Below, piece after piece: positions 2,904 through 27,377 of a stretch of 64,000 bases of DNA. Source of the stretch: a virus. Within the stretch, counting starts at the first letter, position 1, and each line of letters opens with the position of its first letter. The position numbers and the translations under genes were made by a program. The notes beneath the pieces are model-generated. The model ran no database searches. It worked only from the letters and a program-made list of their open reading frames with translations, and was not told the DNA's origin. The stretch is from the IMG/VR virus record IMGVR_UViG_3300039210_000318, positions 9,095 through 73,094 of that record; one strand, given 5' to 3'.

Positions 2904-5444
2904 ATGGACATGGAACCGCAGCAGTCTCAACTCAGTGGAAGCACGCTCACGCCTTCCGGTGGCGGCGGCGGTGGAGCGCCGGCCAGCGCGGCCTCGGCGT
3001 TAGGGGTAATGTGGCGCTCGCTCTATGCCCGCGTGCAGGAGATGATCGACGCCAGCATCCAGGCATACTTCGGCAATAGCTTCCGGGGGGGCAAATTCCA
3101 GGCGAGCGCCCTCACCGGCACGCTGCCTCCTAGTGTGGGTTTCAAGAACCCGATGACGACGTCAGGCGACCTTATCACGGGAGGGACGGCAGGCGTACCG
3201 GCGCGCCTGGGGATTGGCGCCAACACGCAGGTGCTCACGAGTAACGGCACAGCCGCGGCGTGGGCAACCCCGACGCCGCCAGGTATGACCAATCCCATGA
3301 CCCAGCCAGGCGACCTGATCGCCGGGGGCACGGCCGGCGCGCCGGGACGGCTGGCGAGCACGGCGATGGGGCGGGAGTTGGGCCTGGTTAGCGGCGCGCC
3401 GTACCTCGGCGCCCCCGCCGCGCCAACCGTCAACACGGCGACCACCGGGGGGACGGTGGGGGCCTTTTCCGGCTACGCCACTGTCACCTACGTCAACGCA
3501 CAGGGCGAGACCACGGCATCAGCGAACACCTTGATTAGCCTCTCCGGCTCCACTAACGTCATCACCATCGTCTCTCCCTCTGCCTCTGGCACCGGGAGTC
3601 AGGCGGCGACGGCTTACTACGTCTACATGACCAAAGGCGACGGCAGCGGCTTCCCCTGGTTCCTGCAGCAGGCGGCGGGTAGCCCAACCCCGCTCGGTAC
3701 CAACTACGTGATGAGCGCCCAGCCGAACCAGACCGGCGCGGCGCAACCGGCATCCAATACGGCCGGCTCAGCCATCCCGGCATGGATCGTGCCGCCGACG
3801 AGCGGGCTAGTCGACCCCATGACCACGCGCGGCGACCTGATTGCCCGGTTGGCCGGGGGGACGGGCAGGTTGGCGCTCGGGGCGAGCGGCTACGTCCTGA
3901 CCAGCAACGGCACGGATGCGGTGTGGGCAGCGGCCACCGGCGGCTTCACTAATCCTATGACCACGCTGGGAGACACGATCATCGGCGGCGCGGCCGGCGC
4001 AGCCACGCGGCTGCCGATCGGCACCACTGGACAGGTGTTGTCGGTGGTGTCCGGTAGCCCGGCCTGGGCGGCGGCCAGCGGTGGGGGAGGTAGCACGTCG
4101 GTAGTCCCGGCAACCTACTCCGTCATCTTGACCGCAGGGGCAGCGGTGACAGATAGCTCGACGGCTTACGACATGCCCGGCTTGTCTATTGCCAACGTGC
4201 CGGTCGGCACCTACCACTTCTCGCTGTCCATTCTGGCCGGGACAAAGAGCGGCGGGTATGGCGTCAATATCACTGATGGGTCCAATACGAACCTCTGGCC
4301 CACGGCGACCGCGGAGCGCTTCGAGACCTTCACCGACAGTGACGGCTTCGTACAAATGGTGCAGTCCGGCATCTTCACAACGACGGCGGCGGGCACGGTG
4401 AAGGTGCGGGCGGCTGCGTCTGCTGCCGTTGGCAACTACACGGTCTATGACCGCCAACTCACGCTGTTGAACCTGTCTGCTGGCGGCGGGGGCACCGGGG
4501 GCATGGTCCCCCTCCAGGAGATTGTGCTGACCGCGGCTCAGGCGACCATCGCCTTTAGCAGCATCCCGGCGACCTACCGCAACCTCCGAGTGACCTGGCA
4601 GGCCCGCACTACATCAACCTCTAACGGGGACGATGACCTGCGCTTGACAGTCAACGGGGACACCGCAGCGCACTACCTTGATATCTACGACGCCGGGAAC
4701 GGCTCGTCGGCGCTGTCCGGCTCGGCTGGACCGGTGGCCTTTTCCCGCGTGGGCCATGTGGCGGGCGGCAGCAGCACCGCGGGATACCCCGGCAACGGCT
4801 CGTTGCTCATCCCGAACTACACCTCAACTGTCTTTGACAAGACGTGGGAGGCGCACTCCTACGGTGCGCCCGGTCTGTACTGGCTGGATTTCGGCGGGCT
4901 GTGGCAGAGCACCGTGGCGATTAACGCCCTCACGTTTGCTCTCTCTGCCGGCAACTTCGCCATCGGGACGGTCTTCACGCTATGGGCAGATGCGAGCACG
5001 CCCAGTAGCGGTACCGGCAGCGTCAACAAGGTGCAGTTGGACTATCAGGCCAGCGTCAACAGCACGGTTTCAAGCCTGGTGGCGAATACCTGGACGACCA
5101 TCTTTCCCGTCCAGTCGTTCAATGTAGACCTGGCTGGCAGCATCATCGAGGTAGATGTGGGTGGGTTCATCCAGATCGGGAATAACGCCACCTCCACGAC
5201 TATGTTTGCTCGCTTGATTGTGGACAGCACCACCTATTCGACGCTCTCTGGCACCTATATCGGCGGCTCGACATGGGGCAACGCGCTCTCCGGTGCGAGC
5301 ACGAAGATATTGACCGGGTTGTCGGTAGGGTCACACACGATCAACGTGCAATTCTTTACCGACCAGAACACCTCCGTTATCGCTGATGTAAGCAGCGGCG
5401 TCTATCGGAGTTTTGCCATCCGGGTCCTGGAGCGAAAGCAGTAG
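2904..5444 (+). CDS. Tail fibre / receptor-binding protein
   Basis: Four NPMTTxGDLI-GG-AG-RL-IG-GQVLT fibre repeats (near 3147, 3291, 3813, 3951) followed by three beta-rich modules; ATG at 2904/2910 just after the previous stop. Confidence 0.75.
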   Translation: MDMEPQQSQLSGSTLTPSGGGGGGAPASAASALGVMWRSLYARVQEMIDASIQAYFGNSFRGGKFQASALTGTLPPSVGFKNPMTTSGDLITGGTAGVPARLGIGANTQVLTSNGTAAAWATPTPPGMTNPMTQPGDLIAGGTAGAPGRLASTAMGRELGLVSGAPYLGAPAAPTVNTATTGGTVGAFSGYATVTYVNAQGETTASANTLISLSGSTNVITIVSPSASGTGSQAATAYYVYMTKGDGSGFPWFLQQAAGSPTPLGTNYVMSAQPNQTGAAQPASNTAGSAIPAWIVPPTSGLVDPMTTRGDLIARLAGGTGRLALGASGYVLTSNGTDAVWAAATGGFTNPMTTLGDTIIGGAAGAATRLPIGTTGQVLSVVSGSPAWAAASGGGGSTSVVPATYSVILTAGAAVTDSSTAYDMPGLSIANVPVGTYHFSLSILAGTKSGGYGVNITDGSNTNLWPTATAERFETFTDSDGFVQMVQSGIFTTTAAGTVKVRAAASAAVGNYTVYDRQLTLLNLSAGGGGTGGMVPLQEIVLTAAQATIAFSSIPATYRNLRVTWQARTTSTSNGDDDLRLTVNGDTAAHYLDIYDAGNGSSALSGSAGPVAFSRVGHVAGGSSTAGYPGNGSLLIPNYTSTVFDKTWEAHSYGAPGLYWLDFGGLWQSTVAINALTFALSAGNFAIGTVFTLWADASTPSSGTGSVNKVQLDYQASVNSTVSSLVANTWTTIFPVQSFNVDLAGSIIEVDVGGFIQIGNNATSTTMFARLIVDSTTYSTLSGTYIGGSTWGNALSGASTKILTGLSVGSHTINVQFFTDQNTSVIADVSSGVYRSFAIRVLERKQ

Positions 5445-9068: not shown

Positions 9069-9146
9069 GACGGAGCCGGCTCCCCGCCGGCCTCGGTAAA
9101 GCGCTGTGCCCCGCTTGTCAGACGGGGGCCAGGCGCAAGGCCACGC

Positions 9147-14614: not shown

Positions 14615-15009
14615 GCCAGCACCGTCCTTTCCTCGTTCGTCCAGGGGTCATAGGTGTCGCCGGTGTCGGGGTCCGGCAGCTCCGGCGCGTCCTCCGCTTC
14701 CCGGCGCAGGAGGAGCATGGCCCCCCCCGTATCGCTACCCGGCGCGTAGAGCGGGGTGCAGGAAACCAGGTCCCACCCCTCGCGGGCGAAGCGGTTGATG
14801 TAGTCGCTTTCGTCCACCCAGAGGAGCAGCTTGTACTCATAGGTGGGCTGCCCCGCCGCGCGGCGCAGGATCAGGTTCATGAGCGCCTGGTTTCCTACGG
14901 CGCAGGAGGTCGCGCTGGCGATCTCCCAGCCGTCGGAGCTGAGCCGGTTCAGACTTTCGTCCAGTTCCATCCCGGCGTACAGGCAAAGGGTCTTGTGCTC
15001 GTACTTCAC
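14611..15009 (-). CDS. Hypothetical protein with two DUF4177-like repeats
   Basis: YE(H/Y)K..(L/I)NR..(D/E)GW(E/D)..LRR occurs twice; GTG start. Confidence 0.55.
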   Translation of the reverse strand: MKYEHKTLCLYAGMELDESLNRLSSDGWEIASATSCAVGNQALMNLILRRAAGQPTYEYKLLLWVDESDYINRFAREGWDLVSCTPLYAPGSDTGGAMLLLRREAEDAPELPDPDTGDTYDPWTNEERTVLA

Positions 15010-15299
15010 GCCACCCCCCCCTCGAGGGCGGCGAGGTCGGCCTTGGCGGTAGCGATCAGCGGCGCGTAGCGGCTGAGGTTTTCCGGGTGAATCGCCAGCT
15101 TGCCCTCGTAGGTGCGGATGAAGTTCCGCAGCCCCTGGGCCTTGTGGTTGCGCTGCTCCTGCGCGCGCAGGGACGTGACGTGCCAGCAGGCGCGGCCGCT
15201 GCGTCCGGCGGCGCAGGTGCATTCGCTCGCGCCGTTGTCATGCAGCAGGGTGTGGTAGGTCGCGTTGCTCGTCCGGCTGGGCATTAAGGCTTGTACCAT
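15006..15299 (-). CDS. SWIM zinc-finger protein
   Basis: CTC..G..R.CWH motif; GAAAGGA RBS; downstream of the conserved promoter at 15350-15378. Confidence 0.7.
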   Translation of the reverse strand: MVQALMPSRTSNATYHTLLHDNGASECTCAAGRSGRACWHVTSLRAQEQRNHKAQGLRNFIRTYEGKLAIHPENLSRYAPLIATAKADLAALEGGVA

Positions 15300-15443
15300 C
15301 GGGGGCTGGTCCTTTCCTTCGCGGCGCGTCCTGCGCGCCGTGTAAAGGGAGTATACCGCTACGCAACGGTATACGCAAGCGCCACGGCGCCACGCCGGCC
15401 AAAGGTACCCCTCTGCGGTAGCCCATCTGGCCGGCGCGCGCGC

Positions 15444-15635
15444 GGAAAACGCACCCCGACGTTGCCCCACACGCCGCGTTAGAAACGCGAACGGGTAATA
15501 CTGGCAGCCCGCGCCGACTACCCCAGAACCGCGCCACGTTGCCCAAGGCCGGGTGGCCCCCTTTCCGGCCTGCGCCTGACCCCAACGATGCCCCCCAGCG
15601 GGGGCCAACGGGCGACGTGGGGCAACGTCGGCGCA
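15444..15635 (-). repeat. ~190-bp dispersed element, copy A (inverted relative to the other copies)
   Basis: Reverse complement matches the 42392, 46463 and 52260 copies (GGCATCGTTGGGGTCAGGCGCA..GGCCTTGGGCA..CTGCCAGT..TCTAACGCGGCGTGTGGGGCAACG). Confidence 0.8.
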
Positions 15636-15776
15636 AAGACGGGGGAGGTGTCCGGGGGTTGCCATCGGCGGCGGTCAGGCGTGCGCGGCGGGTCAGCCGG
15701 CCAGGCAGGCTCCAGAAACGGCGCTACCGCTGTCATGACGCATGACAGCGGTAGCGGGCAGGGCCAGCGCGGGCGG

Positions 15777-16427
15777 TTATGCCCCCTTGCGCTCGGCCAG
15801 CCAAACCGGCTTCTGGCCACACTTGGCCGAGCAGAACCAGGCGCTGTATGGTCGGCCGTCCCGCGTGGTGCCGCTGCGCAGCAGCATCGGTTCGTCGCAG
15901 GAAGGGCAGGACCGCGCAAGCGCCTCGCCCAATTGCTTCTCCTCGTCGTTGCCGTCCGCCGCCAGGACGCGCGGCCGCTGTTCGTAGTTTGGCTGCTGCT
16001 GCCCACCCCCGGCGCTCGTCTCCTTCTCGTACAAAGAATTGCCGAAGGCATTACCGAAGGTGCGCAGCGCCCGCTTCAGGGCGTCGGTAACCGCTCCCTT
16101 GATGGCGGTCTCCTGGGCGTCGGGTGAAGCCTGGTCGCTGTCGCGGGGGATCGCCGGAATGCCGACGCCGACGTCCTCACGGTTGATCGGCTCGCCTTCC
16201 GGCGGCAGCACGGTCAGCAGGATGGTGGCGAGCCAGACCCCTTGCTGGTGCTCCAGCTTGGTGACCCGGTAGGACCAGCCGTGATAGCCAAAGACGGAGT
16301 TCGCCATGCTGATCACGTCATGGCCTTCGAGGTAGCGGAGTTCGATCCCCTGCTTGCGCCGGGTATGCACCCGGCTATCGTCTACCTTCTGGTCGAGTTG
16401 GTCCAGTTGCGCCGGCGCAAAGCCCAT
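15777..16427 (-). CDS. Rad52/Rad22-family (Sak-like) single-strand annealing protein with a C-terminal Zn ribbon
   Basis: YLEGHDVI..AN.VFGYHGWS, REDVGVG and KGAVTDALKRALRTFGNAFGNSLY motifs. Confidence 0.9.
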   Translation of the reverse strand: MGFAPAQLDQLDQKVDDSRVHTRRKQGIELRYLEGHDVISMANSVFGYHGWSYRVTKLEHQQGVWLATILLTVLPPEGEPINREDVGVGIPAIPRDSDQASPDAQETAIKGAVTDALKRALRTFGNAFGNSLYEKETSAGGGQQQPNYEQRPRVLAADGNDEEKQLGEALARSCPSCDEPMLLRSGTTRDGRPYSAWFCSAKCGQKPVWLAERKGA

Positions 16428-16490
16428 GGCCTTTTCCTCTCTCGCCGCTCTCGGCCCGCCGCGCAAGTGCGGCGGGCCATGCCCCTGCCC

Positions 16491-16889
16491 CTAGAAGGGC
16501 AGATCGTCGTCCAGGGAGTCGTTGCTCGGCGCGGCAGCCGCCACTCGCTCTCCGGCATCGGCGCGGCTACCGAGCAGTTGCAGCTGCTGGACAATCACCT
16601 CGACGCGGTAGTGCTTCTGGCCTTCGGTGTCCTCCCAGGAGCGGGTCTGCAGGCGTCCCTCGATGTAGACCTTCCCGCCTTTGACGAGGTACTGGTTGGC
16701 GATCTCCGCTTGGCGGTCAAAGGCCACGATGTTGAACCACTCGGTTTCCTCGCGGCGGTTGCCTTCCTGGCCCACGGTGCGCGAGACCGCTACCGAGAAG
16801 TTGGTGACCGGCTTGCCGCTGGGCGTGTATCTCATTTCGGGGTCTTTGCCGAGGTTGCCCAAAATGATGACCTTGTTTACTCCTGCCAT
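16491..16889 (-). CDS. ssb: Single-stranded DNA-binding protein
   Basis: VNKVIILGNLGKDPEMRYT, VYIEGRLQTRSW and the DDDLPF tail. Confidence 0.97.
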   Translation of the reverse strand: MAGVNKVIILGNLGKDPEMRYTPSGKPVTNFSVAVSRTVGQEGNRREETEWFNIVAFDRQAEIANQYLVKGGKVYIEGRLQTRSWEDTEGQKHYRVEVIVQQLQLLGSRADAGERVAAAAPSNDSLDDDLPF

Positions 16890-17024
16890 TCCTGGCCTCC
16901 TTACCGCTCGCGCCGCCCCCGGTAGCCATACCGGGCGGCAGCGCGCGCCGGTAGCATTAGTATACCGTACCGCTATGGTATGCTCCGAGAAAGCGGGCTA
17001 GCCGGTTGGGCTAGCCCGCCTGGG

Positions 17025-17297
17025 CTACGCTGCGGTAGAGGTCGCACCTGGCCGGCGCCGGATGGGGTTTCCCTCGGCCGCGCGCCGCCTGGCATAGTCG
17101 ATCTTCCAGCAGCGGGGGGAGCAGTAGCGGCGGTGCCGGCCAAGCTCCTCCATAATCTCCGTGCCGCACACGACACAGTTAGTTGGCTGCTTGGCGCGTG
17201 GTACCGCGCGCAGCACGTTGCCCGCCATGGCCCGGTCGGACAATGAGGGCGGCGGCGGCGGCGCGGGCAGCGCCGCCGAGGCAGAACGAACAGGCAT
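17025..17297 (-). CDS. Small Zn-finger protein
   Basis: CVVCG..YCSPRC motif; AAAAGGAG RBS. Confidence 0.5.
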   Translation of the reverse strand: MPVRSASAALPAPPPPPSLSDRAMAGNVLRAVPRAKQPTNCVVCGTEIMEELGRHRRYCSPRCWKIDYARRRAAEGNPIRRRPGATSTAA

Positions 17298-17518
17298 AGC
17301 CGGCTCCTTTTCCTGGGTAGCTTCACCCCTCGCGCCGGACTCGCCCCGTCGCGTCGGGATACTGGTACGGTACAGTATCCGCACCTGCAATATCGTACCA
17401 TCAATGCTCCCTTCCCCCTCTACCGCGCTGGTATATGCCGTTACGTTACGGTATGCTCAGGACAGCGCGGGGTATGAGGTTGCGCGCGCAGCCGTCCCGC
17501 GCGGAAAGGAAGGTACCC

Positions 17519-17920
17519 ATGACCTTCGCAGAGGCATTGGCTATGGCGCGGCGCCGGGAAGGCTTAAGCCAGTTAGCCCTGGGGGCGCACGCCGGCGTGG
17601 CGGCGTCCCACCTCAACCGACTGGAGCACGGCTACCGCACCGCACCCGGGCCCGCCTTCGTCGCTGCCCTGGTCGGCGTGCTCGGAGACGAGTATGCGCC
17701 GCTGCTCTACTGGACAGCCGGCCTGCTGCCCCCCGCCTGGCGCCGCTTACACCCCGGCGACCCGACCCTCTCGGCGGTCGCCACCTTCCTCTGCGTGCCG
17801 CTACGCGATGCGGGCGAGTTGCAAGACTTCCGGAGCGTCGTAGAAGCCATGGTCCTGCATTGGGGCAGCGCTCCCGCGGTACCCGTGGAGCAACTCGGCC
17901 AGGCGGCGCTGCCGCTATGA
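17519..17920 (+). CDS. XRE-family HTH transcriptional regulator
   Basis: FAEALAMARRREGLSQLALG..SHLNRLEHG; GAAAGGAAGG RBS; preceded by the conserved operator/promoter. Confidence 0.85.
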   Translation: MTFAEALAMARRREGLSQLALGAHAGVAASHLNRLEHGYRTAPGPAFVAALVGVLGDEYAPLLYWTAGLLPPAWRRLHPGDPTLSAVATFLCVPLRDAGELQDFRSVVEAMVLHWGSAPAVPVEQLGQAALPL

Positions 17921-18957
17921 GCGCAGCCGACCAAGATAGCCGACACGGCAGCCGATTGGAGCATAGTCTCGCCCTGCGCCGACTCGGCCAGGGTATGGAC
18001 GCCCTCTCCCTCTCTACCGCACCGGCGCGCCAACTCCGGCTCCTGGCCGTGCTGATGCGCGAGACCTGGGCCTGGAATACCGACGACGTCGGCCTCTCCC
18101 TCACCGAGATTGCGGAGCGCACCGCGCTGGGACGGTCGCATATCACCCGGGCCCTGCGCGCCTTAGAGGCGGCCGGCGTGTGTCGGCGCACGGCCGAGGG
18201 CAACACCAGAGGGCAGAGCCGGCCACGCAATCGCTACACCATGCACCCGCCGGAAGACTGGCTCCCCCCGTTTCTACCCCAGGGTACGAACCGTACCCTG
18301 GGGCCAGGGTACGAACCGGCCACTACCCCAGGGTACGAACCGTACCCAGCCCCAGGGTACGGCAGCACGCCTGACCCAGGGTACGGTTCGTACCCTACAC
18401 CCATGGTTAACCATGACACCTTAACCATGAGAGAGAACCATGGGGCCGACCCCGGCGCAGCCCCGGCTGCGCGGCCTCCCCTTTCCGCGCAATTGCGTTT
18501 GACGGAGCACCGGGCGGCGGGAGCAGCCGTCGACCAGGCCCAGGCCCTTGCCCTGGCCCACTGGCTGGCCGAGGAAGTGCAGCACGGCAGCGAGCCGCTG
18601 GACGATGCTGCGCTGCTGCAGGAAGCCGGGCATGCCGCCGTGCTCATCGCCCGCTTCCACGGCTACCTCGGCGTCGTCGCGCATTGCCAGGAACGCCTCA
18701 AGGAACGCCGCCGCCGGCCGCTGCGGTTGGCTCACGTCGTTGCGGATCTTGCTCGCGCCGAGCGGCGCGTGGCCCCGGCTCTAGAAAGGGCAACCACCCC
18801 CCATGCAAAATCTCAACAGCCAGTGGCGCCAGATTGGTACGCTGGTACCGCAGCAGACTATGCCCGCGACGTTGAGGAGCGCGAAGCCTACCGCGAACGG
18901 CAGCGCGTCGCCTTCGACGCCAGCATGGCCGACCAGGACGCCCGCGCCACCGGCTGA
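17917..18957 (+). CDS. Phage replication initiator (wHTH, lambda-O-like layout)
   Basis: LSLTEIAERTALGRSHITRALRALEAAG..NRY HTH; internal iteron repeats; directly upstream of the DnaC-like loader. Confidence 0.75.
   Translation: MSAADQDSRHGSRLEHSLALRRLGQGMDALSLSTAPARQLRLLAVLMRETWAWNTDDVGLSLTEIAERTALGRSHITRALRALEAAGVCRRTAEGNTRGQSRPRNRYTMHPPEDWLPPFLPQGTNRTLGPGYEPATTPGYEPYPAPGYGSTPDPGYGSYPTPMVNHDTLTMRENHGADPGAAPAARPPLSAQLRLTEHRAAGAAVDQAQALALAHWLAEEVQHGSEPLDDAALLQEAGHAAVLIARFHGYLGVVAHCQERLKERRRRPLRLAHVVADLARAERRVAPALERATTPHAKSQQPVAPDWYAGTAADYARDVEEREAYRERQRVAFDASMADQDARATG
18279..18443 (+). repeat. Iteron-like repeats / probable replication origin
   Basis: CCAGGGTACG at 18279, 18304, 18328, 18352 and 18376 (24-25 bp period), then CCATGGTTAACCATG and AACCATG repeats, all inside the initiator gene. 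Confidence 0.75.
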
Positions 18958-19696
18958 ACGCTGCTCCGTCTGCCACGAGCCGCTCCAGCCGCGGCAGCAC
19001 GGCTGGCTGCGCCGGGGCGGCGCGCCGGGGGAGGAAGGGTTCGGCCTGGCCGTGCCCTGCCCGGCGTGCAGCCCGCCGGTACGCCGGCAGCAGGCATGGG
19101 AGCGCGGCGCCGCGCTGCGCTCCCACTTCCCCCTGCCACCCGAGGCCGTGGCAGCGGGCTGGACCTTCGACTCCTTCCCGAGCACCAACACGACGTCACC
19201 CGTCGTGCGGCGGGTGATTGCCTTCGTCAAGGAGGAGTCCGACTATCGTAATTGCTACGTCCACGGCGACTACGGCGTCGGCAAGAGCGGGCTGGGCATC
19301 GCCGCCGTGCGCTGGGCATGGGAGCAGCGCCGACCGGCGTTGTACACGACGCTGCCGGCGCTGCTCTCCCTCATCCGGCACACCTACGACGAAGGCGGCA
19401 GTCTTACCGAGGAGCACATTCTGCATAGCCTGGAAGAATGCGACCTGCTGGTCGTGGACGATCTGGGTCCGGCGCGCGGCGGGGGAGCCGCGCGTCCGCT
19501 CTCGGCCTGGACGGAGGAGAAGGTCTTCCAACTGACCAACAGCCGCATGCTCTCCGGCCGGCGCACCCTCTACACCAGCAACCACCGCCCGGAAGCCCTC
19601 CGGCCGCCGACCATCCTGGGCGACCGTATCGTGGAGCGCATCGAGTACCGCTGCCTCACACTCGAGCTCGCCGGGCCGAATTGGCGGCGGCAGTAG
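18803..19696 (+). CDS. DnaC/IstB-like AAA+ helicase loader
   Basis: Zn-binding CxxC pairs, Walker A GDYGVGKS, Walker B LLVVDDLG, TSN and RIVERI motifs. Confidence 0.88.
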   Translation: MQNLNSQWRQIGTLVPQQTMPATLRSAKPTANGSASPSTPAWPTRTPAPPAERCSVCHEPLQPRQHGWLRRGGAPGEEGFGLAVPCPACSPPVRRQQAWERGAALRSHFPLPPEAVAAGWTFDSFPSTNTTSPVVRRVIAFVKEESDYRNCYVHGDYGVGKSGLGIAAVRWAWEQRRPALYTTLPALLSLIRHTYDEGGSLTEEHILHSLEECDLLVVDDLGPARGGGAARPLSAWTEEKVFQLTNSRMLSGRRTLYTSNHRPEALRPPTILGDRIVERIEYRCLTLELAGPNWRRQ

Positions 19697-19702
19697 GACC
19701 AC

Positions 19703-19731
19703 TTTGATATACCGTAACGCTACGGTATGCT
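19703..19731 (+). promoter_or_regulatory. Sigma70-type promoter with TACCG-N8-CGGTA operator upstream of the RAMP gene
   Basis: TTTGAT-ataccgtaacgctacgg-TATGCT, same architecture as the other conserved promoters. Confidence 0.7.
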
Positions 19732-19785
19732 AGCAGCGCCGGGAATTGCCCCGGCGCCAACAATGCCAAAGAAAGGCAACCCCCC

Positions 19786-20490
19786 ATGGCCCTCCCAGAC
19801 GGTTTCCCAGCGGTCCCCCTGACCCCGGAGGAGGAGGAAGACGTCGACCTCTACGAGCGGTACGACGTCATGCTCCACATCCGCGAGCGTATCACCGGGG
19901 GGGTCCCGGCGAACCCGGAACTGCTCTCCGGTTTCCTGCGCGGTAAAGGCATCAGCAGCGAGCAGGCCCAGGCCGAACTGGCAGCCAAGATGGCGTCCGA
20001 TATGGACGCAACCTTGACGGAGGAAATCGAAAGCAAGACCTCCGTCTTCTACCGCTCCGGCGGCACCGGTGGCCCGCTATGCACCAAGGAGTTTGCCATC
20101 AAGGCATGCTTGAAAGAAGCCGGCGTAGCGTCCGGTTACATGAGCGCCGGGGGAATCCGGCAGCCCATGCAGCATGGGGTGTTCATCAAGCCTCTGCACA
20201 TCTTGCTGCGACGCGAGGACGGCAGTTTCTACCTGAAGGCTGATGGCACCGACGAGAAGGTGACCCACACCATGGGACCGCGCGGCCCGGTGAGTGGCAT
20301 CAGCCGCTTCGAATATGTGCGCGCGCCGTACCTGCGCTTCGAGATCTGGGTCCGCGCGTCCTACAAGCAGAAGCCGACCGAGCAGCAGCTACACATCATG
20401 CTGCGCACGGCCAAAGAAATTGGCCTGGGAGCCAACCGGACCATGAGCGAGGGGAAGTTTGACCTCCTCCACTTCGCGGCGCTCGCATGA
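19786..20490 (+). CDS. Stand-alone RAMP/Cas7-like RNA-binding protein
   Basis: 234 aa; N-terminal strand followed by ITGG.P; FYR..AIKACLKEA helix; C-terminal G-rich loop IGLGANRTMSEGKFDL typical of RAMPs; no other cas genes in the window. Confidence 0.7.
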   Translation: MALPDGFPAVPLTPEEEEDVDLYERYDVMLHIRERITGGVPANPELLSGFLRGKGISSEQAQAELAAKMASDMDATLTEEIESKTSVFYRSGGTGGPLCTKEFAIKACLKEAGVASGYMSAGGIRQPMQHGVFIKPLHILLRREDGSFYLKADGTDEKVTHTMGPRGPVSGISRFEYVRAPYLRFEIWVRASYKQKPTEQQLHIMLRTAKEIGLGANRTMSEGKFDLLHFAALA

Positions 20491-21973
20491 GCGCCGCCAC
20501 CACCCGCGCCAGCGCGACTAACCTGACCAAACCACCCCGTTCCCAGGCGACTATCCCGTCCAAGTCCTGGCGCACCGGAGCGACTAGCCATCCCTCGCCC
20601 TTCCCCGGCGACCATCCGTTGCATGCCTTACCCTTCCCCGCCAGCGCGACGAGCCAGTCCATTCCACAACCAATCGACCATCCGTTCCACGACCTTGCCA
20701 TCCTATGCGACGTGCCGAGCCTATCCGAATCATTCCCGCGCGACGAACCCAACCATGCCTTCCCGGGCCCGCGCAACGAACCTGGCCGAACCCTCCCTGG
20801 CCGCCCCTGCGCGACTACCCGACCCGGACCCTTCCAATCCGGTGTGACAATCCAGACCTTTGCATTCCCCGGCGACTATCCGTTCCAGACCTTGCTCATC
20901 CGTCCCGCGCGACAATGCCAGCCTATCCTCGACGCCGAGACGAGCCGATCCTATCCCATGCTCATCATTCCCTGCCGGGGCGACTATCCCTCCCTACCCA
21001 CCTCACGCCGGTGCGACTTTCCACGTCATGCCCAATCAGGACTCAGCGACTTTCCGTCCCAAGACAGCCCGACCCCCGGCGACAACCCTAAACCAGCCGG
21101 GCCAATCCGGGGCGACAACCCAGACCTTGCCCACCCTCGCCGTCGTGACATGCCTACCCTGCCAGGCCCACGCGACATTCCAACCCTTTCCTTATCCGGC
21201 CAGCGCGACACACCTAGCCACCCCCGACCGCCGCGACGATCCGGCCCTTGCCACACCGGCGCGGAGCGACATGCCACGCCTGTAGCACGCCAGTCCATGG
21301 CGACTATGCCGGCCACTCCCGCCCGATACTTTCCTGGGCGACAGTCCACCCTACGCCTCTCCCTGCCCTGCCCTGGAGACGGCCCAAGCCAGCGCCACCC
21401 TCCCCATGCCATCGGGACAAGCCAAACCCCCCCTTGCCTGGACAGGGCGACTTCCCAGCCCATCCCCACGCAGACCCAGGCGACGATCCCGACCAACCCC
21501 ATACCCGGCGACAAGCCTCATCCATCCGGACCACTCCTTGGCGACTTCCCATTCCACCCCCTCCCAGGCCAACCCGGTGCGACAAGCCCGCCCGGTCTAA
21601 TCCTCTCCCCGGCGACAAGCCGCCTCGATCCAAGCCTCCTCGCTACGCACCGGCGCGACAATCCTTATCCCACCTGCCCAACGCGACGCGACTGTCCATC
21701 TCACTCCAACCCCGCTCCCCCCTACGCGACGAGCCAAGCTAGCACCATCCAAGCCACGGCGACTACCCATCCCCATACGAGACACCCCAAGCCCGGCCCG
21801 CGCGACGAGCCTATGCGAACCCATCCCTGGCGACGAACCCAGCCATGCCTTCCCTACCCTGTCCACGGCGACGAACCCGCACCCGCCTTCCCCAGCCATC
21901 GTGACGATCCCGTCCAAGCCTTCCCTGACCGGACCTCTGTGACAACCCGCGCCAAGCCACGCACCCCTACCCT
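20491..21973 (+). ncRNA. Pentamer-periodic guide-like array: units of GCGAC + (NNN-CC)x4-7 + NNN, with 43 anchors
   Basis: Anchors counted by hand from 20514 to 21939; 39 of 42 intervals are 28/33/38/43 nt; the variable triplets differ between units; starts immediately at the RAMP stop codon. Confidence 0.75.
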
Positions 21974-22008
21974 GGGGGCCATCAATAGCAAAAGGAAAGG
22001 AACCACCA

Positions 22009-23061
22009 ATGGGAGACAAGACCTCCATCGCCTGGACAGCCTCCGTAGACGCCAGCGGCGCGACCACGCCGGGCTCAACCTGGAACCCGCTGCGCGGCAC
22101 GGTGGGCAATTGGACGTGCGTGCGCTGGTCTGCCGGCTGCGAGCACTGTTACGCCGAGAGCCTTAACAAGCGCTTCGGTGGGCCCGGCTACACCACCGGC
22201 GCCGATACCCCGCGCCTGGACGAGCGCATCCTGGAGCAGCCGCTACGCTGGCGGCTGCCGCGCAAGGTCTTCGTCGGCAGCATGACCGACCTGTTTGAGC
22301 AGCGCATCCCCGACGAGTGGATCGCCCGAGTGTGGGCGGTCATGGCGATGGCGTCCGGTCACACCTTCCAGGTGCTGACCAAACGCCCCGAGCGCATGTG
22401 CCTCCTGCTCGGCAGCAGCACGTTCCAAGCCCTCGTCACCCGGGCCCTGCACGAGCACCGCCACCCCAAGGGGTGGTACCTGGAGGGGGTGGGCGCCTGG
22501 CCGCTGACCAATGTCTGGTGCGGCACCAGCATCGAGCAGGACCGTTGGACCGGCCGCGCCGACGTCCTTCTGCAGACCCCGGCGGCGGTACGGTTCCTGT
22601 CCCTGGAGCCATTGCTAGAGCCGTTGCCCTCGCTGCGGCTGGGGGGCCTGGACCACCTGGACCGCGAGTACCGCAGCCAGATTGGCAAGGGCATGTTCAA
22701 TAGCGATCAGGTCGATAGCCTGCGCCGACCGGTCATCGATTGGGTGATAGTAGGCGGCGAGTCCGGACACGCCCCGGACTCCCGTTCTCTGGTAGAGGCC
22801 TGTGATCACACGTTCGGCGTGGTCTTTGTCAACGGCGTGCAGCAAATCAGCATCGCCCCGCCGAAGGACTGCCTAATCTGCTACGGCACCGGTTGGCGTC
22901 CGAAGCCGTGGGCCGAGAAGGAGGCAAAGCGCCTGCGTCTCTTGACACACCTGGCCGATGGGGCGTTCTTTTTTAAGCAGTGGGGGGGACCGCGCAGCCA
23001 TTCCGGCGGTCGCATGCTGGTCGGCCGGGAGTGGTTGGAGTTCCCTAAGGGGACGCTATGA
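22009..23061 (+). CDS. Phage Gp37/Gp68 (DUF5131) radical-SAM-like protein
   Basis: TWNP..C..SAGCEHCYA, FVGSMTDLF, QVLTKRP, RFLSLEPLL, WVIVGGESG and FFFKQWGG motifs. Confidence 0.92.
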   Translation: MGDKTSIAWTASVDASGATTPGSTWNPLRGTVGNWTCVRWSAGCEHCYAESLNKRFGGPGYTTGADTPRLDERILEQPLRWRLPRKVFVGSMTDLFEQRIPDEWIARVWAVMAMASGHTFQVLTKRPERMCLLLGSSTFQALVTRALHEHRHPKGWYLEGVGAWPLTNVWCGTSIEQDRWTGRADVLLQTPAAVRFLSLEPLLEPLPSLRLGGLDHLDREYRSQIGKGMFNSDQVDSLRRPVIDWVIVGGESGHAPDSRSLVEACDHTFGVVFVNGVQQISIAPPKDCLICYGTGWRPKPWAEKEAKRLRLLTHLADGAFFFKQWGGPRSHSGGRMLVGREWLEFPKGTL

Positions 23062-23267
23062 AACGCGCGCGGGCTATTGACCACAACCCTGACCGCCTCC
23101 GCTGTGTCGTCTGCGGGGACAGCGCCGGGCTGGCCAGGCGTCAGGAAACCTTGGTCGGCATCGTCTGCGAGTGCTGTTTCGAGGGAGCGGACGGCGCTCC
23201 CTATTGGGCCAACTGGAAGATTTCGCTGACACCCGGCCAGCGCACGACGTTGAGGAGCATGCGATGA
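23058..23267 (+). CDS. Small C4 Zn-finger protein
   Basis: CVVC..CECC; ATGA-coupled to both neighbours. Confidence 0.5.
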   Translation: MKRARAIDHNPDRLRCVVCGDSAGLARRQETLVGIVCECCFEGADGAPYWANWKISLTPGQRTTLRSMR

Positions 23268-23707
23268 GAGCCATCAGCTTTAGCTGGACCAGTGCCGCCC
23301 TGGTCGCCGGCCACAAGACGGTGACCCGGCGCGTCTGGGACGAGCGGTACGCCATCGGTTTCCACCAGGGGGACATGGTAGAAGCGTTCGATCGACAGCC
23401 GCGCTATGGCGGCACGTGCATCGCCCGCATCCGTGTCCAACGGCTGACCTACGAGGCCATGAGCGTCATGCCGGACTATGACTACGAGGGGGAGGGACAC
23501 GCCTTCTACGACGCCCACCCGGAGTTTGCGCCCAAGCAAATCTCCGGGCAGCGCGTCCTGCCCGGCCAGTTCAGCCGCCTGTCCTTCGACTTCTGGCGGC
23601 GCAACGGCACGAGCATGTGGGTGCTGCGCTTCTCGCTGGAGGAGATCGAGACGGACCTGACGCCTGTGCTGCAACGCGCGGTAGAGCTACGCCGGCTACC
23701 GGCATGA
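23264..23707 (+). CDS. ASCH/PUA-like domain protein
   Basis: ISF..LVAGHKTVTRR, EGEG and WVLRF motifs. Confidence 0.7.
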   Translation: MRAISFSWTSAALVAGHKTVTRRVWDERYAIGFHQGDMVEAFDRQPRYGGTCIARIRVQRLTYEAMSVMPDYDYEGEGHAFYDAHPEFAPKQISGQRVLPGQFSRLSFDFWRRNGTSMWVLRFSLEEIETDLTPVLQRAVELRRLPA

Positions 23708-23756
23708 CGCCGTACTACTGCAACCCGGCCGGCGACGTGACGCTCTACCTGGGGCT
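23704..23756 (+). pseudogene. Orphaned 5' end of an amino-methyltransferase gene
   Basis: MTPYYCNPAGDVTLYLG resembles the start of the downstream MTase (VKPYYENDDIGVRLFLGD); it is cut off by the homing endonuclease gene. Confidence 0.55.
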
Positions 23757-24237
23757 ACTCAATGCGCCGGCGAGTGTCGTTCAACAGGCGCAATCTACGC
23801 CAAAGTTCCAGACGCTCCTCCGTGATTTCCGGGGACAGGCGCGTACCACGCACCCCGACCCGGATCGTCCGTTGCTCGGCACGCGGCCGGTCCTTGGAAG
23901 CCCGAAGGGCCAAAGCGAGATCTGCCCGCTCTCCTTTGACGCGGAGATAGGGGCGGACGGCCGAGAGAAATTCCGCTGCCTTCAGGCAGGACACCCTCCA
24001 CTCATACATTGGACGCCAGTTCGCGGTTCCCCTTTTCCTCAACCGGAATTCGCCGGGCCACAAGGCGGCGAATATCTCTACGGCCGCGCTCTCTGTCTGC
24101 CCAACCTCAGCAGACTCACTGAAGGTGTAAGAGTTCGGCCACCTGATATTGGTAGCTTGCCGACGAATCGTCACCGACCCATCGGCATCAAAGACCCCTG
24201 CCAGATAGGCCAGGGTCACCTGGTTCTTTTCATACAC
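23755..24237 (-). mobile_element. Free-standing single-motif LAGLIDADG homing endonuclease
   Basis: LAYLAGVFDADGSV and FL..VRPYLRVK motifs; antisense to the operon; GAAGGAA RBS. Confidence 0.85.
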
Positions 24238-24287
24238 GCCCGTCGTTCCTTCCTCTCACATTATACCGGGGTATGGCGGGGTATATC

Positions 24288-24974
24288 GTGAAGCCTTATT
24301 ACGAGAACGACGACATCGGGGTACGACTGTTCCTCGGAGATGCGCGCAGCGTCCTGGCCGACCTGGCGCCGGTAGACGCCATCATCACCGACCCCCCCTG
24401 GCCCGGCGCCAAACCGACCGCCGAGTGGACGGACGATCCCGCCGGCCTCTTTACCGAGACCGCCGTCCACTTCCCCCGCCTCGTCGGCCCGGGTGGCCGG
24501 CTGATCGTGCAGCTTGGCAGCGGTACCGACCCCCGCATGCTCAACGGCATCCCGCCGAGCTTGCCCTTCGTGCGCGTCTGCTGGCTACGCTTCTCCGTGC
24601 CGCGCTACCGGGGCACCCTCCTGGACGGCGCCGACGTCGCCTACGTCTACGGTGGCATGTGGCTCGGCGCGCCGGGGAAGCGCGTCATGCCGGGGGAGGC
24701 CAACGCCACCAGCAGCGATGCTGGCCGGCGGCGCCGCTACCTGATCCCCCACCCCTGCCCGCGCCGACTGGAGCACCTGGAATGGTTGGTGTACCACTTC
24801 ACCAAGCCGGGCATGACGGTGCTCGATCCCTTCGCCGGCAGCGGGACCACCCTTGACGCCTGCCGCCGTCTCGGCCGGCCTTGCATCGGCGTGGATACCA
24901 GCGCCCCCTACCTCGACAGCATCATCGAGCGCATCGAGCGTCAACCGCTCCTGCCCCTGGATATGACGGGCTAG
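24288..24974 (+). CDS. DNA N6-adenine/N4-cytosine methyltransferase (beta class)
   Basis: IITDPPW, HPCPR and VLDPFAGSGTT motifs. Confidence 0.88.
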   Translation: MKPYYENDDIGVRLFLGDARSVLADLAPVDAIITDPPWPGAKPTAEWTDDPAGLFTETAVHFPRLVGPGGRLIVQLGSGTDPRMLNGIPPSLPFVRVCWLRFSVPRYRGTLLDGADVAYVYGGMWLGAPGKRVMPGEANATSSDAGRRRRYLIPHPCPRRLEHLEWLVYHFTKPGMTVLDPFAGSGTTLDACRRLGRPCIGVDTSAPYLDSIIERIERQPLLPLDMTG

Positions 24975-25020
24975 TACCAACGGCATGGGCCTGACATATA
25001 CCGTTACGCTACGGTATAGT

Positions 25021-25458
25021 ATGGCAGCGGCGCTGGACGCCGCGACGAGGAGGAAGATGGAACTCACCGGGTATCACGGCCTGACGCAGAGCATATATCT
25101 TTGCGGACCCTGGCGCGGGCGGGCCATGTACGTGTCCTTTGACCGCTCCCTGGCGCTGGCGGTCGCCAAGTACGGCGGCGTCTACGCCGTGCGCTACGAG
25201 GCATCCTGTCCGCTCGTCCTCGACACCCCGGCTCTGTTCCGGCACACCTGGGAGGCTTCCGGCGCGCCGTTCCCGCGCGTTTTCAGCACGCAGCGCCGAC
25301 GCCTTGAAGACTACTGCCGCAAGCGGGGGTCAGACGCCATCGTCCTGCCCGCCTCGGCCTTCGGGGGGGAATATGGGTACGCCTGGGTGGCCGGGCTCTT
25401 CGGAGAGCCGCAAGCCATCCTGCTCGCACCGGAGCGGGCGGTGCTCACCCCATGCTGA
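25021..25458 (+). CDS. Hypothetical protein (possible ADP-ribosyltransferase-like fold)
   Basis: GYHG..YVS..A..YG pattern; has its own conserved promoter at 24992-25020. Confidence 0.4.
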   Translation: MAAALDAATRRKMELTGYHGLTQSIYLCGPWRGRAMYVSFDRSLALAVAKYGGVYAVRYEASCPLVLDTPALFRHTWEASGAPFPRVFSTQRRRLEDYCRKRGSDAIVLPASAFGGEYGYAWVAGLFGEPQAILLAPERAVLTPC

Positions 25459-26855
25459 CCTTTGCCGACCTCTGCTGCGGCGGGGGTGGCGCGACCATGG
25501 GGGCCATGGCCGCGGGCCTCACCCCCATCTGGGCGATTGAACACGACCCGGCGATAGCCGAGGTGTACCGGTCCAACCTGGGCGACCATATCATCGTCGG
25601 GGACGTGGCAACCCAGGACATTGCCGCCCTGGAGCCTCCGGACGTGCTCTGGGGCAGCTTCCCCTGTCAGGCGCACAGCATCGCCCGCTCGAAGCACATG
25701 GCCGAGCGCACGGACGGCGACCTGTCCCTCTGCATCCTCGACTACGCCCGCCTCCTCACCCCCTCCGTGATTGTCCTCGAAAACGTGCCGCCCTGGATGC
25801 GCGCACCGGTCTATGGCGAGATCGTGGCGGGCCTCTCGGCGCTGGGCTACTTCGTGGACGGACGGCTGGTAGACGCCAGCCACCACGGCGTGCCGCAGTC
25901 GCGCCGGCGCGCCATCCTGCGGGCCACGCGCGGTACCCTGCTGCCGGCGCTGCCCCCCCGGCTACCCGCCCTGGGCTGGTACGACGCCGTAGCCGACCTG
26001 CTGCCTGACCTGCCGGAGACCAGCTTTGCGCCGTGGCAGTTGCAACGGCTGGTCGCCTCCGGCCGCTCCTTCGTGCTCGACGGCGGCTACAGCAGCGCCG
26101 ACCGGGGCACCGACGAGGACGGCCTCCCCCTACCGCGCGGGGCTACCCGGCGCGAGCAAGAAGAGCCGCTTTTCACGGTAACGGCGACCCTCACCAAACG
26201 GCCCATGCGGGCCTTCCTGGTTGAGCAATCCCAGGTTGGACGCGCAGCCACGGTGCGCGAGGTAGCAGAGCCATCCGCGACCATCCAGGCATGGCATGGC
26301 CGACGCCCCGGCAACGCCCCCCGCGCCTATCTCGTGCATAACCAGATCAGCGAGGGAGCCAACGCCCCGGTGGTGCGCGAGGACGACGAACTCGCCCCGG
26401 CGGTGACGATGCAGAGCGGCGGCCGGGTGCGGGCCATGCTCATGCAGATGAAACATACGAGGAACGAGTGGGGGGACGGTACCCGCGACGAAGCCGACCC
26501 GGCCTTCTCGGTGCTCACGGACGGCAAGCCGTCCCACCAGCCCAAGGCGTTCCTGACGCACCCGACGGCCATGAACCCCCGCTTCACGATCCGGGAGGAA
26601 GGGGAGGCGTCTCATACCCTGACCTGCACGACCAACCCCACGCGGGCCTGGATCGGCCAGGGTAGGGTAGTGGCCCTCTCCCCGCGCTGCCTCGCCCGCT
26701 TCCAAACGTTCCCGGACAGCTATATGCTGCCCAAGGGCAACGGCCTTGCCGGTCGCATAATCGGCAACGCCGTGCCGGTACGCCTCGCGCAACGCATCCT
26801 CGTCGGCCTGGTCGCCGACTTGGTACAAGGGCCAGAGAAGGAGCACACCGCATGA
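25452..26855 (+). CDS. DNA cytosine-5 methyltransferase
   Basis: DLCCGGGG, SFPCQ, ENV, QSRRR, RFQTFPDSY and GNAVP motifs. Confidence 0.93.
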   Translation: MLTFADLCCGGGGATMGAMAAGLTPIWAIEHDPAIAEVYRSNLGDHIIVGDVATQDIAALEPPDVLWGSFPCQAHSIARSKHMAERTDGDLSLCILDYARLLTPSVIVLENVPPWMRAPVYGEIVAGLSALGYFVDGRLVDASHHGVPQSRRRAILRATRGTLLPALPPRLPALGWYDAVADLLPDLPETSFAPWQLQRLVASGRSFVLDGGYSSADRGTDEDGLPLPRGATRREQEEPLFTVTATLTKRPMRAFLVEQSQVGRAATVREVAEPSATIQAWHGRRPGNAPRAYLVHNQISEGANAPVVREDDELAPAVTMQSGGRVRAMLMQMKHTRNEWGDGTRDEADPAFSVLTDGKPSHQPKAFLTHPTAMNPRFTIREEGEASHTLTCTTNPTRAWIGQGRVVALSPRCLARFQTFPDSYMLPKGNGLAGRIIGNAVPVRLAQRILVGLVADLVQGPEKEHTA

Positions 26856-27377
26856 CCGACTACCCTGAGGGGACCAGGGGGCTGATACCGGGTAGGCAGC
26901 CCCTGCCGACGACACCCCCACCGCCCGCCCCCCCCGGCGCGCGGTCTCCACACCGACCCGGCGTTCCGGGTCAAGACACGGGGCCTGCTCAACGCCGACG
27001 ACGATGGCACCTGGATGGCGGTCAACTGCGTGGACGCGGTAGCCATGCTAGACGACGTCGACCACCTCGAACGACTCCTGGCGACGCTCAACCGGACGCA
27101 ACGGACCCACAGCGCCGAGTGCTGGCGCTGGCACCAGCAGTGCGCAGTAGAGGAAATCGAGCGTCTCCTTGCATTGGCGCACCCATGACCGTATCAGAAC
27201 GGCGCGCGCGTACCGCGCTACACGCCTGCTTTATCGCTGATGGCGGACTGGCCGAAGCCCACCGCTGCCTCGCGGCAGAGCCGCAAGACGTACAGGAAAT
27301 GCGCGCCGTGGGCGCCCTGCGCGCCAGCCTGGCCGAGACCGTAAACCGCCTCAACGCCGTGTTGCGAGGCGCCCCCC

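Follow-up and report, generated by a model that had tools for sequence, protein, structure and literature searches.

A probable VIPR-type module in a soil phage: a Cas7-like RAMP gene followed by an array of 43 putative guides

The window analysed here, a 64,000-nucleotide (nt) stretch of a virus record in IMG/VR (IMGVR_UViG_3300039210_000318, positions 9,095 to 73,094), carries on its + strand a repeat array of about 1.48 kb (20491..21973) directly behind the gene for a small RAMP protein. The array consists of 43 units arranged head-to-tail, each of which reads GCGAC followed by 3–7 pentamers of the form NNNCC and a closing NNN, and its + strand is C-rich (C 46%, G 20%). Its first base comes right after the stop codon of the upstream gene (19786..20490, +), here called vipr-like, which encodes a 234-amino-acid (aa) minimal RAMP with a Csm3/Cmr4-like fold and a G-rich loop (GLGANRTMSEGKF). 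At its other end the array reaches the ribosome-binding site of the DUF5131 gene that begins at 22009, and it thus fills the whole gap between the two genes. The locus is, at a probability of roughly 0.85, a Viral Interference Programmable Repeat (VIPR) type module of a soil phage, made up of one Cas7-like RAMP gene and a bank of 43 guides. The array had been described before from its letters (the original prediction); this description was accurate, although the Cas7-like RAMP partner upstream and the published VIPR class had been missed. The array is not a one-off assembly artefact. The segment 19786-22100 recurs identically in 4 contigs from 4 soil-metagenome runs, which belong to one study, may be where the DNA of the window came from and are not independent.

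A recount recovered all 43 anchors at the positions at which they had been located by hand. GCGAC accounts for 34 of the 43, the variants being GTGAC (4), GAGAC (2) and TCGAC, GCAAC and GGGAC (one each), in keeping with the earlier remark that most variants retain GAC and one reads GCAAC. The 42 intervals between anchors were 33 nt in 20 cases, 38 in 9, 28 in 7 and 43 in 3, while 37, 27 and 34 nt occurred once each. Lengths of 5n+3 therefore make up 39 of the 42 intervals (binomial p=3.3e-24 vs 0.2), with 33 nt the commonest, as first counted. This rule arises because the CC columns run on past the anchor and the 8-mer NNNGCGAC takes the place of one pentamer, giving an anchor block of 8 nt. 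Anchor-aligned logos, one of the checks proposed along with the array, displayed CC columns of roughly 95–100% on either side of the anchor. Within the pentamers the last C is conserved at 98% and the preceding C at 75%; these CC letters and the anchor are the only constrained letters in the array.

Periodicity was evaluated by autocorrelation of CC positions against 1000 dinucleotide-preserving shuffles. The count at lag 5 was 128 as compared to 67.4+-6.7 in the shuffles (z 9.0; shuffle maximum 91), and at lag 33 it was 141 as compared to 65.9+-7.0 (z 10.7; shuffle maximum 89). Neither value was reached by any of the 1000 shuffles, and lags of 28, 38 and 43 gave z values of 7.8, 7.8 and 5.0, respectively. 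The expected period-5 signal with a reset at each anchor was therefore present in the autocorrelation, whereas the plain Fourier transform had no peak at period 5.0 (0.057; mean of the shuffles 0.199), the register being displaced by +3 at every anchor. The strongest Fourier period was 33.0. No two units are the same, as had been noticed earlier: 43 of 43 are distinct, and pairwise identity of the variable triplets was 0.282, against 0.254 expected from composition, meaning that the units are effectively random relative to one another. Tandem Repeats Finder detected only (CCCTG)3. The sequence GCGACNNNCCNNNCC was found 25 times in the window (3.78+-1.78 expected), 21 of the 25 inside the array. 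Some units open with the same or similar triplets, namely 20740-20772 and 21830-21867 (GAA-CAR-ATG-TTC), 20608 and 20674 (CAT-GTT-) and 21376, 21508 and 21726 (-AAG/AGC-CAT-); this sharing would fit guides against variants of one target site.

VIPR was first described in 2026 (bioRxiv, April 2026) and has been characterised mainly in coliphage and Pseudomonas prophage systems. In the parts of the preprints that were available, it is a phage-borne system of a ~20-kDa ancestral RAMP (Vipr) and vrRNAs built of pentanucleotide repeats, 9–16 YNNGG repeats being followed by a 3' tail (10.64898/2026.04.26.720920). It is the variable NN that pair with DNA, one base (as a rule the codon wobble) being skipped, and the systems are aimed at rival phages, at satellites and at other VIPR systems (10.64898/2026.04.26.720920). 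One Vipr protomer binds each pentamer, both G's being gripped by the G-loop and thumb residues (10.64898/2026.04.26.720927). Seven types are distinguished, with NNNGG, YNNNG and NNNNG as alternative repeats and with the system of Escherichia phage SUSP1 as type II (10.64898/2026.04.26.720920).

The 234-aa protein has no match in Pfam or PHROG. It contains a long beta-hairpin at residues 154-179, and an alignment of 14 family members revealed an invariant GGxP motif and the C-terminal loop G-L-G-A-x-R-S-Q-G-x-G-K-F. Weak profile matches among the same 14 members were to a Csm4 model (7 of 14) and to a Cas6 model (5). In metagenomes the family comprises 2026 clusters at 50% identity (E<=1e-3), and the closest named relative, at 52% identity, is a hypothetical protein encoded in a Chloroflexi metagenome-assembled genome. 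The product of agp039 in the fetched genome of phage SUSP1 was taken as SUSP1 Vipr since H17 and the G-loop residues D-W-R fit the residue numbers of the structure paper.

The array and the RAMP gene were found together in other phages. A scan of IMG/VR for pairs of anchors at a distance of 33 nt, both showing the CC register, resulted in 97 stretches. Arrays of the window grammar were present in 14 of these, representing 13 phages as two loci (L047 and L064) overlap identically. A homologue of the 234-aa protein lies beside the array in 13 of the 14 loci, always on the array strand and at a distance of 0–100 nt except in L028 (372 nt); the 14th locus, L043, is an excerpt of 3,964 nt that is nearly filled by arrays. 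The vipr-like gene stands upstream of the array in the window and in 6 loci and downstream of it in 6 phages. Besides the RAMP gene, no gene was common to the neighbourhoods of the 15 loci, and there was no conserved vap gene. The sister arrays have up to 45 anchors at spacings of 23, 28, 33, 38, 43 and 48 nt, and in every locus NNNCC is on the vipr-sense strand, the last C being conserved at 92–100% and the preceding C at 48–95%.

Unit content turns over rapidly between these arrays. The Vipr proteins of L047 and L071 are 96% identical, yet the two arrays have only 1 of 28 units in common, and when 231 units of 12 arrays were compared, pairs from different arrays were at least 80% identical in only 3 cases. 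The comparison with related phages, which had been suggested as a check, hence found one grammar with almost entirely different content. A fixed anchor and CC, random content and fast turnover support the view of the original prediction that this is an information-carrying array and not a slippage satellite. The sole unit kept between L047 (3334) and L071 (2969) is 48 nt long and 96% identical, and it is among the least regular, with CC at the ends of 5 of its 8 pentamers. Two further stretches, L046 and L061, contain GCGAC clusters at spacings of 27, 75 and 33 nt, on a strand with more G than C (39% and 30%). Their layout departs from the grammar, and they were rejected as probably an ordinary coding repeat caught by the pattern.

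Searches outside these loci were negative. The array grammar gave at least 120 single matches in genome contigs, and none of those listed was accompanied by an array or a Vipr homologue. A subset-alignment search of genome contigs found no relative of the 234-aa protein, which is not enough to claim absence there; neither did a protein-pattern scan of viral contigs, nor tblastn of the protein against 50,697 phage records.

The target rule of VIPR, that is N1N2 of each pentamer followed by one skipped base, was tested on the longest units of the sister loci. A unit of 10 pentamers in L047 (2587, - strand coordinates) had a single match in IMG/VR (G001:C1:1217-1245). This match is in frame, covers 20 of 20 positions once extended, and has 10 of 10 codons synonymous with the guide triplets; what it hits is the NHKPPIRGTD motif in a primase-helicase of 727 aa (Prim-Pol/D5_N/DUF5906). 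The control phase N2N3 resulted in 2 matches, neither of which extends. The real target of this guide is probably a high-GC homologue, since the phage with the sole match has a GC content of 51% and differs at the wobble bases.

Two further units matched vipr genes. The 9-pentamer unit of L071 (3250-3302) had 6 matches, 2 of which are the vipr gene of its relative L047/L064; here the match is antisense, comprises 18 of 18 positions at VTELLGGMP and is in codon phase 0, the wobble being the base skipped. Conversely, a 7-pentamer unit of L047 (- strand, array coordinates 3574-3616) matched the vipr gene of L071 at 14 of 14 positions at MPKTEDL, also in codon phase 0. By our own arithmetic, the chance expectation in about 20 kb of vipr sequence is ~7e-5 for 14 specified bases and ~3e-7 for 18. 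Each phage's own vipr gene escapes its own guide: two dinucleotides differ in L071 (through a V-to-L change and through a TTG leucine codon), and one differs in L047 (a TTG leucine codon, from a TTG/CTN switch). Judged from these sequences, the pattern looks like reciprocal anti-VIPR targeting with self-sparing. That long units match genes of other phages under the VIPR code lends further support to the array being an information-carrying one. The other 4 matches of the L071 unit (L227-L230) were considered as a divergent vipr gene and ruled out, as the gene they fall in is an unrelated one of 168 aa and they are not in phase with the wobble; they are probably due to chance.

Several observations weigh against the assignment to VIPR. 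The profile alignment of the family with SUSP1 agp039, the one characterised Vipr in the comparison, is colinear but weak (hhalign E 4.8e-4, probability 32%, 136 columns), and a profile of 164 sequences gave E 9.3e-4, probability 22% and 46 columns. The vipr-sense strand carries CC in the window clade as opposed to YNNGG in SUSP1; the guides have 3–7 pentamers (up to 10 in relatives) as compared to the 9–16 repeats of published vrRNAs; and where those have a structured tail of ~40 nt, there is an 8-nt anchor, NNNGCGAC. In the 34.7-kb, 51%-GC phage with the primase match, the other guides of L047 performed no better than shuffled ones, and the 4 matches of the L071 unit that were ruled out above are one sequence in four contigs. 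One of the four long-guide scans was null (the 10-pentamer guide of L043, 0 matches), and among the guides of the window itself none could be given a target. Furthermore, with 5–6 pentamers most guides specify 10–12 bases when the NN rule is applied, and this seems too little sequence to single out one site in a genome of several Mb. Finally, no RNA run was listed as containing this DNA, and transcription of the array, its strand and the ends of the units are all inferred.

When 119 guides were compared with 2.1 Mb under 8 pairing rules, no excess over shuffled guides was observed. Eight perfect matches under the rule 'N1N2N3+skip2' were discarded as targets, as they are the array of L047 recurring in its duplicate L064. 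The window guides had 1 match to 166 Vipr-family proteins with 3.1 expected. The guide at 20937, with 14 specified nt, gave more than 118 matches, with no clustering among the matches listed; one of its matches, in a 69-aa membrane-like open reading frame of a 72%-GC contig, was judged to be chance. A reading of the variable triplets as sense codons (r 0.66; of the six frames this was the best in 9 of 12 arrays) was not relied on, since a uniform model fits better than the codon model and the correlation that is left shows no frame specificity.

We lean, with some reserve, towards the vipr-sense C-rich strand as the transcribed one, the remaining weight falling on antisense vrRNAs of the NNNGG type. 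In favour of the sense strand, the array is co-oriented with vipr in every locus, as in SUSP1, whose YNNGG tracts are on the same strand as vipr, and the arrays sit tightly between a stop codon and the ribosome-binding site that follows, which leaves no space for an antisense promoter. The degeneracy of NNN-c-C, in which the last letter is invariant, parallels the published YNNNG and NNNNG variants. Moreover, the G-reading residues of SUSP1 Vipr are replaced in the window clade, where G-loop residues D177 and W178 align with A and with N/D/S. A promoter-like candidate upstream of vipr points the same way. This sigma-70-like site (TTGATA-16-TATGCT; 19704..19731, +), in the 89-nt gap upstream of the RAMP gene, is the sole promoter-like site in 16000-24000 where 0.9 are expected by chance; its position is suggestive and not significant. 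Across loci the promoter scan was uninformative as to strand, with one sense candidate in the window, none antisense and none in 12 other loci. For the antisense strand speak the GG of the canonical VIPR motif, as the array reads GGNNN on that strand, and a mild excess of purines at the third variable position in some arrays.

By analogy with SUSP1 VIPR, the array would be transcribed and one RAMP protomer would bind each pentamer, gripping the fixed dinucleotide and displaying the variable bases. The 8-nt NNNGCGAC that replaces one pentamer would be the source of the '+3' and may punctuate the transcript into units of 28–43 nt, by serving as a processing site or else by capping a filament. 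In the long units of the sister loci, as distinct from the window itself, the first two variable bases correspond to positions 1 and 2 of the target codon with the wobble skipped, so that k pentamers read k codons. The targets in the sister loci, replication and vipr genes of other phages, point to inter-phage interference, and the effect is presumed to be binding or silencing and not cutting because no nuclease or helicase is conserved as a neighbour. More tentatively, and with the odds somewhat against it, the Vipr-like clade may have been re-specified to read C-C in place of G-G on a sense transcript, with a bare 8-nt NNNGCGAC instead of a folded tail, so that one operon RNA would be split into dozens of self-delimiting mini-guides of 3–10 codons. 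If this holds, the C-C clade would represent a second 'alphabet' of the VIPR code, and no multiplexed guide array known would be more compact. If the C-rich strand is indeed the RNA, the protein reads a different fixed dinucleotide, which bears on the evolution of the code and on orthogonal VIPR tools.

Upstream of the module are an O-like replication initiator (17161-18957; 598 aa as listed) and a DnaC-like helicase loader (18803-19696). The initiator reading frame overlaps the start of the loader frame by 155 nt; going by these coordinates, one of the two starts has probably been called too long. Downstream, the DUF5131 (Gp37/Gp68-type) gene (22009-23061) follows the array directly with its own ribosome-binding site, and farther on are an N6/N4 DNA methyltransferase and a C5-cytosine methyltransferase (24273-24974 and 25452-26855, in the order listed). 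There is no CRISPR array or cas operon in this context of an IMG/VR virus record with replication genes, DUF5131 and methyltransferases as neighbours of the array. The whole record has a single RAMP gene, and an Rfam scan of 15000-27000 gave nothing above E 0.029. As previously noted for the window, neither Cas1 (PF01867) nor a reverse transcriptase (PF00078) was matched, here in the 73-kb record, which is 63% complete.

Three other explanations of the array were weighed. An open frame of 559 aa (20487..22166, +) runs through it, joined to the upstream stop codon by an ATGA overlap, and the selected product could accordingly be a proline-rich protein translationally coupled to the upstream gene, with the nucleotide periodicity secondary. 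This frame is open against the odds in the window (p about 0.015–0.017): it has 0 stops compared to 6 and 8 in the other two frames, and out of 5000 shuffles of unit order some frame remained open in 86 and the 559-aa frame in 39. Protein-level selection, however, cannot yield a 5-nt period, and the anchor is read in all three frames (GD/RD, AT and R-x) because units of 28, 38 and 43 nt shift the frame. The frame has no match in Pfam or PHROG, and its last 158 nt lie within the DUF5131 gene, for which a separate ribosome-binding site is present. Among the 14 homologous arrays an open frame was found in 8, as compared to 7.2 expected, and stops occur in all three frames in 6. Because of these 6 arrays the 559-aa reading frame is, on sequence grounds, probably a by-product. 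That it might be the selected product, a possibility raised with the original prediction, was not supported and is in our view very improbable.

The location directly downstream of the initiator and loader genes, together with repeats that are all direct and in one orientation, could also be taken to indicate a protein-binding array at the DNA level, such as an iteron origin or a partition site that serves these two proteins. Elsewhere, however, the array accompanies the RAMP gene and not replication genes, no other neighbour being conserved, and steps of 5 bp place successive anchors on different faces of the helix. A binding site is also hard to reconcile with unit content that is almost wholly replaced between close relatives and with long units that match coding sequences of other phages codon by codon, and we attach very little weight to this explanation. 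The third one is an RNA decoy or sponge for an RNA-binding complex of the host, in which the anchor mimics the 5' handle of a CRISPR RNA (crRNA) and the units are not a guide bank. The 8-nt 5' tag of some type III crRNAs presumably ends in GCGAC; a literature search for AUUGCGAC gave no CRISPR paper among the 8 listed of 12. A sponge needs neither unique unit content nor codon-phased matches to genes of other phages, and the array always comes with a RAMP gene of its own. Precedent exists in a satellite system where, in the available part of the preprint, vrRNAs can serve as redirecting decoys (10.64898/2026.10.15.759431). On balance a sponge is highly unlikely here.

The preferred assignment, a VIPR-type module, was compared with known systems. 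The fold of the window RAMP resembles Csm3/Cmr4, the Cas7-family backbone of type III CRISPR. Unlike in type III CRISPR, the step is 5 nt and not 6, a fixed dinucleotide is part of every step of the RNA itself, and there are no repeats of 25–40 nt, no Cas1 and no other adjoining cas gene; the only repeated element is the 5–8-nt anchor, next to one RAMP gene. Within VIPR, the window array differs from SUSP1 in having 43 contiguous units where SUSP1 has 1+3 vrRNAs, and it is not of type II architecture because 3–7 pentamers and an 8-nt anchor leave no room for a tail. Unlike typical VIPR loci it has no conserved vap gene, although vap is typical and not universal. Neither the CC motif nor the GCGAC anchor is mentioned in the available text and legends of the VIPR preprints, and a literature search for NNNCC/GCGAC together with vrRNA found no paper. 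Non-canonical VIPR-like arrays with GAC/NN, CAC/NN and other motifs are described elsewhere, according to the part of that preprint available (10.64898/2026.10.21.760802). Among the closest published counterparts are 'staggered' arrays that abut such that one vrRNA's end marks where the next begins; in the available text these are outside the architectures confirmed by small-RNA sequencing (10.64898/2026.04.26.720920). The window array resembles them, as far as that text describes them, in its head-to-tail units, its relaxed fixed trinucleotide and in reading NNNGG if transcribed antisense.

With VIPR in general the window locus shares an adjoining tract of 5-nt repeats, RNA-coding in VIPR, that combines fixed and hypervariable positions. 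As in SUSP1, it is phage-borne and has a small single-RRM RAMP with G-loop and thumb and no cas genes. The sister loci add a variable dinucleotide that reads the target with the wobble skipped, and targets among genes of rival phages including rival vipr genes; they provide a clear natural example of related phages targeting each other's vipr while sparing their own. The locus is most likely an example of the known VIPR kind, in an architecture absent from the VIPR preprint text available. It would extend VIPR to a 68%-GC soil phage, in an unusually dense form in which 43 guides are contained in 1.5 kb and parted only by an 8-nt mark.
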